Below, in pieces: positions 1,431 to 51,120 of a DNA stretch of 64,000 nucleotides. Under the pieces are notes generated by a model. It saw nothing but the letters and a program-made list of their open reading frames with translations. It was not told the DNA's origin and did not search any database. This DNA comes from Escherichia coli (GTDB lineage: Bacteria > Pseudomonadota > Gammaproteobacteria > Enterobacterales > Enterobacteriaceae). The translations under genes and the position numbers were made by a program. Location: the NCBI RefSeq assembly GCF_044647545.1, contig NZ_CP172818.1; one strand, given 5' to 3'. Each line of letters starts with the position of its first letter. Within the stretch, counting starts at the first letter, position 1.

Positions 1431-1575
1431 TCTTCATCACTTTGACATTCAAATCCCTTCAAGCTCCCCCGGCAATAAGAAAAGCGCGTACTGAAATCGT
1501 TATCAATCAACGTCAATTGTACATTTCGTGCGCTTTTTACTTTCAGAAGAACCTTAAGAAAACCTTAAGAAGCAT

Positions 1576-1592: not shown

Positions 1593-1642
1593 AGTTAATC
1601 GACCATACTGGAGATCGTCAGAAAATATTTCCAGGAGATGGC

Positions 1643-2275
1643 ATGATTCGCTTATCTGAACAAAGTCCCCTGGGCACCGGAAGACATCGGAAATGTTATG
1701 CGCATCCGGAAGATGCCCAACGCTGTATCAAGATTGTCTACCATCGTGGCGATGGTGGCGATAAAGAGATCCGCCGTGAGTTAAAGTACTACGCGCATCT
1801 TGGTCGTCGGTTAAAAGACTGGAGTGGAATACCGCGCTATCACGGTACCGTTGAGACGGATTGCGGAACCGGTTATGTCTACGATGTGATTGCAGATTTT
1901 GACGGCAAACCCTCCATTACGCTGACCGAATTTGCTGAACAATGCCGTTACGAAGAAGACATTGCACAACTGCGCCAGATACTGAAACAGCTGAAGCGTT
2001 ATTTGCAGGATAACCGTATCGTGACGATGTCGCTGAAGCCGCAGAATATCCTCTGTCACCGCATCAGTGAGTCAGAGGTTATCCCCGTCGTCTGCGACAA
2101 CATTGGTGAAAGCACATTGATTCCACTGGCGACCTGGTCGAAGTGGTGTTGTCTGCGTAAGCAAGAGCGGTTATGGAAACGATTTATCGCCCAACCGGCG
2201 CTGACTATTGCCCTGCAGAAAGATCTGCAACCTCGTGAAAGCAAAACGCTGACCCTCACTTCGCGCGAAGCTTAA
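1643..2275 (+). CDS. yrbL: PhoP-regulated protein YrbL
   Basis: 210-aa [31 protein letters not shown]...; length and sequence match YrbL. Confidence 0.9.
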
Positions 2276-12375: not shown

Positions 12376-13788
<1,413 letters not shown>

Positions 13789-13909
13789 GGTGTTCTGGAA
13801 AGCGCCTCGCATAATCTGAAGAAAACCAATGTAATACGCACATCTGGATTGTTACCGGCCGATGCAGATCCCGGCGTATAGCTGATTCCATTATTCAACA
13901 CTGCGCCAT

Positions 13910-50260: not shown

Positions 50261-50562
50261 CCATTTAGCAAGGATTAATAAGAGAGGGAACTCATTTTGA
50301 AATCATTATTCAATCGGTTAACGGGAAAAGCGGTTAGCCGGACAGCTTTCGTCGAACATCTTGGTCATGAAGTTGTACAACATCATCCAAACTGGAAAGT
50401 CATGATTTCGACTGACCATAAATTGATGCGCATTGATACTCACCAAACGGTAAATCACTCTTGATGATCTACAAATAACAAAAATAATATAAAAAAAACA
50501 TTTAAAAAAAAAAACGCCTCGCTGGATTTTGCCTGGGAAGACTTAACGATGAGTTAATTATC

Positions 50563-50735
50563 TTGTTTGCTGAAGATGGTAGCGAAACCATGCGCTATCT
50601 GATGCGCTACGAAGTGACCATTGACCGCGAACAAGCCATCAATAATTTGAAGCAAATATTGCCGGAAGTTTCGGCTGAAATCGTTGATACAGGCGCAAAC
50701 GCTGGAAAATTTGCCGTTATCTCCCCAGGGGTCTT
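50563..50735 (+). other. Candidate protein-coding start (ORF N-terminus) that runs into the low-complexity tract; product unknown
   Basis: Track ORF 50563..50988; first ~58 codons (…MRYLMRYEVTIDREQAINNLKQILPEVSAEIVDTGANAGKFAVISPG) have E. coli-like codon usage, then the frame enters homopolymer sequence; not recognised. Confidence 0.25.
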
Positions 50736-50736
50736 T

Positions 50737-51120
50737 AGACCCCCCTCTTGTTCCTTTTACCTTTTCGCCAACCCCCCCCCAAATTTTTATCCCCCCCCCC
50801 AAAAAAAATTTTTTTTCCCCACAAAAAAAACCACCCAAAACCCCACCCATAATAAAAAAAAAAAAAAAAAATTCCCCCCTGCAAGAACCACCCCTCCAAA
50901 AAAAAAAATTTATCCCCCCCAAACTCTCTTTTCCCCGGAAAAAACCCTTCATCAACCCACCCCCCCAGATAAAAAAAATTGGGGATGATGGTAAAAATTC
51001 AAAAACACCAAACGCCTTTCCCCAAAAATTTTTTTTTTTTTTTAGCGAAAAAATCAAAAAACAAAAAAACGCACTGCCGCCTGACAAAACAGTTTACCTT
51101 CTGCAAAATGGGGGGAATAA
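50737..51120. other. Anomalous low-complexity tract: A/C/T homopolymer runs, almost no G; probable sequencing/assembly artefact
   Basis: Read directly: runs such as c9, a8, t8, a18, t14 interspersed over ~380 bp; strong strand asymmetry; unlike any surrounding sequence. Confidence 0.8.

Follow-up and report, generated by a model that had tools for sequence, protein, structure and literature searches.

BasR, which is the PmrA of Salmonella, is a response regulator of the OmpR family. The PmrA box consists of the half-sites CTTAAG and xTTAAT placed 5 bp apart, and is bound head to tail by a PmrA dimer (PMC3973317). From the K-12 genome we extracted the DNA upstream of three canonical targets of activation by BasR, as a test that is independent of the papers on yrbL, and read the boxes in the direction of transcription as CTTAAGGTTggCTTAAT for eptA (pmrC), CTTAAGGTTaaGTTAAT for arnB (pbgP/pmrH) and CTTAAGGTTcaCTTAAT for pmrR. 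All three begin with CTTAAGGTT and follow the motif CTTAAGGTTnnxTTAAT. By our reading of these three promoters, the box faces its gene and the second half-site stops 10–13 nt short of a -10-like hexamer, an arrangement that is class-II-like.

Other direct-repeat sites of the OmpR/PhoB family, for example the PhoP box, (T/G)GTTTA-N5-(T/G)GTTTA, likewise have paired hexamers that recur after 11 bp on a single helical face. Such sites are read by tandem winged-helix domains, but the sequence of their hexamers differs from that of the yrbL box described below. A close parallel to yrbL in regulatory arrangement is pmrD of Salmonella, a PhoP-activated gene of ‘architecture I’. Its promoter has a PmrA box that precedes a single PhoP box, the latter lying over the -35 region, and it is repressed by PmrA (passages in PMC2681069, PMC3335776 and PMC4196223), which here exerts negative feedback on a gene activated by PhoP. 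The distance between the two boxes is given in a passage of PMC2681069 as approximately 38 bp in pmrD vs approximately 24 bp in yrbL. In K-12, no PmrA/BasR-box pattern was found in the 109-bp region upstream of pmrD.

The yrbL gene is itself part of the published PhoP–PmrA network, and the presence of a BasR/PmrA site in its promoter is already known. PmrA is stated to bind and repress the E. coli yrbL promoter in a passage of PMC3335776 that cites Zwir 2005, and repression of yrbL by PmrA is also stated in a passage of PMC4196223. Excerpts of PMC2681069 attribute both PhoP- and PmrA-binding sites to the E. coli promoter and place the PmrA box of Salmonella yrbL at the distance from the PhoP box given above. 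In the section of PMC4145685 that contains the regulon table, the regulators of yrbL are BasR and PhoP. Furthermore, in E. coli B adapted to iron(III), eptA, the arn genes and basR are strongly up-regulated and yrbL is among the genes with the greatest down-regulation, as reported in part of PMC13405929, although this anticorrelation between yrbL and the BasR regulon, obtained by RNA-seq, comes from evolved populations and not from a basR mutant.

The tandem repeat upstream of yrbL

The window, i.e. the whole 64-kb stretch of E. coli DNA analysed here, contains a perfect head-to-tail repeat of AACCTTAAGAA in the 212 nt that separate npr (ptsO), whose stop is at 1430, from yrbL, whose ATG is at 1643. 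Direct reading of the sequence places the two 11-nt units, with no mismatch between them, at 1550–1560 and 1561–1571, and the repeat as such is assigned to neither strand. Identity with a period of 11 ends at both edges (g at 1549 vs a at 1560, and g at 1572 vs a at 1561), so that the repeat comprises 22 nt in the immediate context ...cagaag AACCTTAAGAA AACCTTAAGAA gcat.... No other perfect tandem duplication in the window has a period of at least 11, and the repeat is also the top-scoring array of the window in Tandem Repeats Finder; first-order Markov shuffles give a chance expectation (mean) of 0.01 such repeats per window. A preliminary description of this DNA had reported an 11-bp duplication at these positions, approximately 5 bp upstream of a candidate PhoP box in the yrbL promoter. 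The duplication is indeed exact, the gap between the repeat and the PhoP box (1576–1592) measures 4 nt, and the placing of the repeat as an upstream promoter element beside a genuine PhoP box is borne out.

Each 11-nt unit contains CTTAAG, and the repeat therefore contains CTTAAG-N5-CTTAAG, with the hexamers at 1553–1558 and 1564–1569. This agrees with the hexamers and spacing of a PmrA/BasR box, YTTAAK-N5-YTTAAK, with 0 mismatches. The resemblance extends beyond the core hexamers. Read on the minus strand, the yrbL site is CTTAAGGTTttCTTAAGGTT (written as CTTAAGGTTttCTTAAGgtt when set beside the K-12 boxes), and is a perfect match to CTTAAGGTT-NN-xTTAAK, the form that is shared, with its 11-bp period and its hexamers 5 bp apart, by the boxes of eptA, arnB and pmrR. 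The putative BasR/PmrA box, CTTAAGGTT-tt-CTTAAGGTT, thus occupies 1550–1569 on the minus strand, as assigned from the motif match, the K-12 boxes and conservation; its half-site 1, nearest to the PhoP box, would run from 1569 to 1561, and its distal half-site 2 from 1558 to 1550. Because one unit of the repeat corresponds to one extended half-site plus two spacer bases, the period of the repeat is one helical turn.

When the 64 kb were scanned with CTTAAGGTTNNBTTAAK, the yrbL site was the lone match with 0 mismatches. Four matches with up to two mismatches were found in the window vs 0.24 expected, and the other three, with two mismatches each, are all located within coding sequence. The yrbL box of E. 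coli differs from those of eptA, arnB and pmrR in that its half-sites are CTTAAG/CTTAAG (two ‘half-1’ sites), whereas the latter have CTTAAG/xTTAAT. The same protein presumably binds the yrbL box and the boxes of these three genes as a head-to-tail dimer.

All of the sequence-level features of a PmrA/BasR box, namely hexamers, spacing, extended motif and conservation (see below), are present at this site. In the window, the first CTTAAG starts 23 bp before the first PhoP hexamer. We estimate a probability of roughly 0.9 that the repeat is the BasR/PmrA operator of the PhoP-activated yrbL promoter. The motif match, the reported distance between the boxes and the conservation together argue strongly for a BasR footprint on exactly these 22 nt.

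An exact copy of AACCTTAAGAA is also present in the region upstream of K-12 eptA (nt 22–45 of 103), immediately 5′ of the BasR box. There the unit and the box form a perfect palindrome, CCAACCTTAAG-AA-CTTAAGGTTGG, which amounts to an extra inverted half-site upstream of the activating box.

Several other elements were looked for in the same region. A consensus scan of both strands found neither a sigma-70 promoter nor an intrinsic terminator overlapping the repeat. Rfam gave only sub-threshold noise for an RNA element or small RNA in the npr–yrbL spacer. An RcsB box of the type TAAGAAnnnnTCCTA (compared by eye) was rejected, its left half alone being matched.

Architecture of the yrbL promoter and orientation of the box

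The PhoP box of yrbL in the window is TGTTTA-gattt-CGTTTA, or TGTTTAgatttCGTTTA (plus strand), as established by direct reading and by comparison with published boxes, and is an activator site lying over the -35 region. It follows (T/G/C)GTTTA-N5-(T/G/C)GTTTA in direct orientation, 11 nt upstream of CATACT. The corresponding box of Shigella yrbL, tTGTTTAggtttTGTTTAa, has been confirmed by EMSA. For Salmonella yrbL, passages of PMC3335776 give TCGTTTAGGTTTTGTTTAA as the PhoP box, the same geometry from this box to the -10 hexamer and, by S1 mapping, CATACT as the -10 hexamer, 2 nt from there to +1 and a leader of 32 nt.

The hexamer CATACT at 1604–1609 (plus strand) is the -10 hexamer of the PhoP-dependent yrbL promoter, and is invariant in 12 species. 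Transferred from Salmonella by homology, the E. coli transcription start would be near 1612; the alignment shows that the leader is 1 nt shorter in E. coli than in Salmonella. Relative to this putative +1, the PhoP box extends from -36 to -20, and the BasR box from -59 to -43 with its centre at approximately -51. The hexamers of the two boxes start at 1553, 1564, 1576 and 1587, i.e. in steps of 11, 12 and 11, and so keep to nearly one continuous 11-bp register along one side of the helix. The yrbL coding sequence (1643–2275, plus strand) encodes 210 amino acids, as recognized from the open reading frame and from the RefSeq annotation of an identical stretch, in which the product is named ‘PhoP regulatory network protein YrbL’.

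For comparison among species, yrbL loci were taken from one genome per species and the upstream regions of 12 loci were aligned, comprising the window, five other Escherichia lineages, E. albertii, four Citrobacter and Salmonella enterica subsp. arizonae. Conservation, expressed as the share of sequences that have the majority base, is 0.93 in the 22-mer and 1.00 in the 5-nt spacer of the box, 0.88 in the PhoP box and 1.00 in the -10 hexamer, and 0.50–0.62 in the DNA flanking the repeat on both sides. The half-sites and their spacing are therefore kept above the flanks in three genera.

The box is inverted relative to yrbL and points away from the gene; CTTAAG being palindromic, this orientation relies on the GGTT next to it and on the asymmetry that CTTAAT gives to the boxes of the other species. 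Unlike the boxes of eptA, arnB and pmrR, that of yrbL is thus inverted, has its centre at approximately -51 and lies upstream of the site of another activator, and the outcome reported for it is repression. An inverted site, compared with those of BasR-activated promoters, fits the role of a repressor.

With two half-sites one helical turn (11 bp) apart, a phosphorylated BasR dimer would bind head to tail. When BasS/BasR is switched on, either by Fe3+ or by PhoP via PmrD, BasR bound to the box would damp the PhoP-dependent transcription of yrbL, so that the gene would be under joint control, activated by PhoP and damped by BasR. Such logic has already been described for the PhoP/PmrA circuit. 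Since the box is inverted and lies upstream of another activator, the usual recruitment of RNA polymerase by BasR would be geometrically impossible here. The geometry of the box leads us to favor repression by steric interference, either with the PhoP dimer bound next to the box or with contacts that RNA polymerase makes upstream.

It is improbable that the site mainly serves another or an additional role, either as a target of the BasR paralogue QseB or another regulator of the OmpR family, or as part of a BasR-activated promoter of a minus-strand transcript. The polarity of the box on the minus strand does equal that of eptA, arnB and pmrR, and just downstream in that direction there is an invariant block of 20 nt, TTGTACATTTCGTGCGCTTT (1517–1536, given on the plus strand), with a conservation of 0.97 in the 12 loci and approximately 0.5 on both sides; however, the stretch between block and box that would have to contain the -10 hexamer (1537–1549) is poorly conserved (0.56), a consensus scan of 1380–1700 detected no sigma-70-like promoter on either strand, and the only minus-strand open reading frame that begins within the block has a length of 3 codons. 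Moreover, Rfam gave no match for such a transcript, and what the passages of PMC3335776 and PMC4196223 describe is repression of yrbL, with no divergent transcript.

The invariant block lies upstream of the repeat at a distance of 13 nt, or 16 nt if measured to the CTTAAG core. It has no match in Rfam and occurs only once in the window, and the RNA pairing predicted for it is inconsistent among species. It probably belongs to the yrbL regulatory region, and may be the site of a further regulator of yrbL. The block was also considered as the 3′ arm of an npr terminator, an assignment that was rejected on account of the inconsistent folds and of several species that have a separate terminator upstream. 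Comparison by eye with the consensuses of RstA, OmpR, marbox, CRP, FNR and sigma-54 gave nothing convincing.

Origin of the repeat and copy-number alleles

Read on the minus strand, the box is CTTAAGGTTTTCTTAATATT in E. albertii and three Citrobacter, CTTAAGGTTTTCCTAATGTT in C. amalonaticus and TTTAAGGTTTTCTTAATGTT in S. arizonae. These outgroup boxes are of the canonical, asymmetric CTTAAG/CTTAAT type in the same 11-bp register, and CTTAAT is their distal half-site. The presence of same-register boxes in the outgroups indicates that the two-half-site operator is older than the divergence of Escherichia, Citrobacter and Salmonella. As judged from the aligned sequences, E. coli and the related cryptic clades share identical units as a derived character, and the perfect repeat would have arisen by one or two point substitutions that changed the distal half-site from CTTAAT(A/G)TT to CTTAAGGTT, not by duplication.

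Among 5,426 complete E. coli genomes, 5,425 have the intergenic region, and the two-half-site layout is found in approximately 5,422 of the latter. The exact 30-mer around the perfect repeat is present in 1,864 genomes (34%). A further 3,159 genomes (58%), including BL21, have the form ...CTTAAGAGgcat, which is identical at 21 of the 22 positions, the change being outside the hexamer. A blastn match covering at least 83% of the length of the 30-mer was obtained in 5,424 of the 5,426 genomes, and only 24 were at 90–95% identity. The outgroups and the cryptic clades have A at position 1571, which suggests that the perfect form is probably the older state in E. coli. According to the preliminary description, a two-unit repeat shared by all E. 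coli and their relatives would be an ordinary promoter feature. For the two-unit layout this is the case, but the exact 22-of-22 form is restricted to approximately one third of E. coli and to some cryptic Escherichia.

Copy numbers other than two were found in three of the 5,426 genomes, each a singleton. The ST131 strain 4993 (NZ_CP103557.1, locus 420–445) is the only genome in the census with one unit, by an exact 11-bp deletion, and retains a single AACCTTAAGAA, and so one putative BasR half-site, followed by a PhoP box that is intact; no one-unit allele on K-12-type flanks was found in the census. Three units, by an exact 11-bp insertion, are present in the O157:H7 strain 493/89 (NZ_CP038412.1) and in the pig isolate HCP4S3_I4 (NZ_CM149872.1), and because their flanking haplotypes differ, these two alleles have independent origins. 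Slippage has therefore occurred independently at least three times in this promoter, and none of the resulting alleles has spread.

The preliminary description had further suggested that the two units could result from a slipped-strand duplication that alters promoter spacing or the contacts of upstream elements. Slippage does act at this site, as the one-unit allele and the two three-unit alleles demonstrate, but it is not the source of the two-unit state, which belongs instead to an old and conserved operator, as seen in the outgroups and in the census. A recent slipped-strand duplication of 11 nt, either neutral or of consequence only by shifting the upstream DNA by one helical turn, is accordingly very unlikely: it would account for the perfect identity of the units and has a parallel in the rare alleles just described, but not for the differing yet in-register units of Citrobacter, E. 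albertii and S. arizonae, for two units in nearly all E. coli genomes, for a conservation of the repeat far above that of its flanks, or for a unit that matches a known transcription-factor half-site. The repeat is neither young nor frequently polymorphic, and hence is not a young or phase-variable slippage repeat. The repeats of phase-variable (contingency) promoters resemble that of yrbL in being perfect short tandems within a promoter that have copy-number variants; unlike them, the yrbL repeat has two copies of a unit that is a transcription-factor half-site and exhibits no sign of switching. A perfect tandem in a promoter can thus be two half-sites of an OmpR-family regulator at a spacing of one helical turn, which should be checked before slippage is invoked. 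That the repeat is a functionless product of chance is the least likely reading of all and can be set aside, since it has in its favor only that short repeats arise in AT-rich intergenic DNA, against the low chance expectation, the conservation across genera and the exact match to the motif.

With the repeat taken as a BasR/PmrA operator, the identity of its half-sites might have made a conserved operator prone to slippage, in which case the one-unit and three-unit alleles would be real mutations that remove or reinforce the repression of yrbL by BasR. We regard this as doubtful. If it were true, a gene controlled by PhoP and BasR would be rewired in a single step, at low frequency but recurrently, and possibly under selection in particular hosts. 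The three natural strains are ready material for the comparison of one versus two units that the preliminary description had proposed. The discovery value of the locus is low, as the BasR/PmrA site of yrbL has been published and, to our knowledge, yrbL has no known function. The additions made here are modest, and consist of the inverted orientation of the box, the E. coli-specific homogenization of its half-sites and the three rare copy-number alleles.

Two further genomes have changes at this locus. In strain CE10 (O7:K1, NC_017646.1), the distal half-site has CTTTAG in place of CTTAAG (locus 185–190), and at the annotated start codon of yrbL (locus 274–276) ATA replaces ATG; this hints at a decay of both the operator and the yrbL gene. 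In E. coli 720632 (NZ_CP025842.1, locus approximately 1680–1710), an IS66-family insertion is located right at the -10 hexamer of yrbL (CATAC|gtaagcg...) and splits the BasR/PhoP control region from the downstream DNA, in which no yrbL is annotated.

Other observations in the window

The gene annotation used here was carried over from the near-identical sequence NZ_CP033850.1, and applies up to position 13788 of the window. The two sequences differ by an indel of approximately 70 bp after gltD (13789–13791), and the window is without the IS4 copy that NZ_CP033850.1 has between degS and mdh (at approximately 29380). Beyond 53635, after accC, the window diverges fully, and NZ_CP033850.1 has a sugar-utilization island there.

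Two stretches of the window, at approximately 50476–50512 and 50732–51069, consist of G-depleted homopolymers of C, A and T (C8–C10, A18, T15; GC skew approximately -0.68), and replace 171 and 384 nt, respectively, of a hypothetical gene (DUF1444) that lies between acuI and accB. The flanking sequence is matched by 5,425 complete E. coli genomes, and in none of them was a counterpart of these stretches found. Both stretches have the appearance of corrupted or poor-quality source sequence and not of real biology.

Finally, a 420-nt contig labelled Tannerella forsythia ATCC 43037 (NZ_JUET01000135.1) encodes a YrbL fragment that is 98% identical to the E. coli protein, and is almost certainly E. 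coli contamination of a draft assembly.
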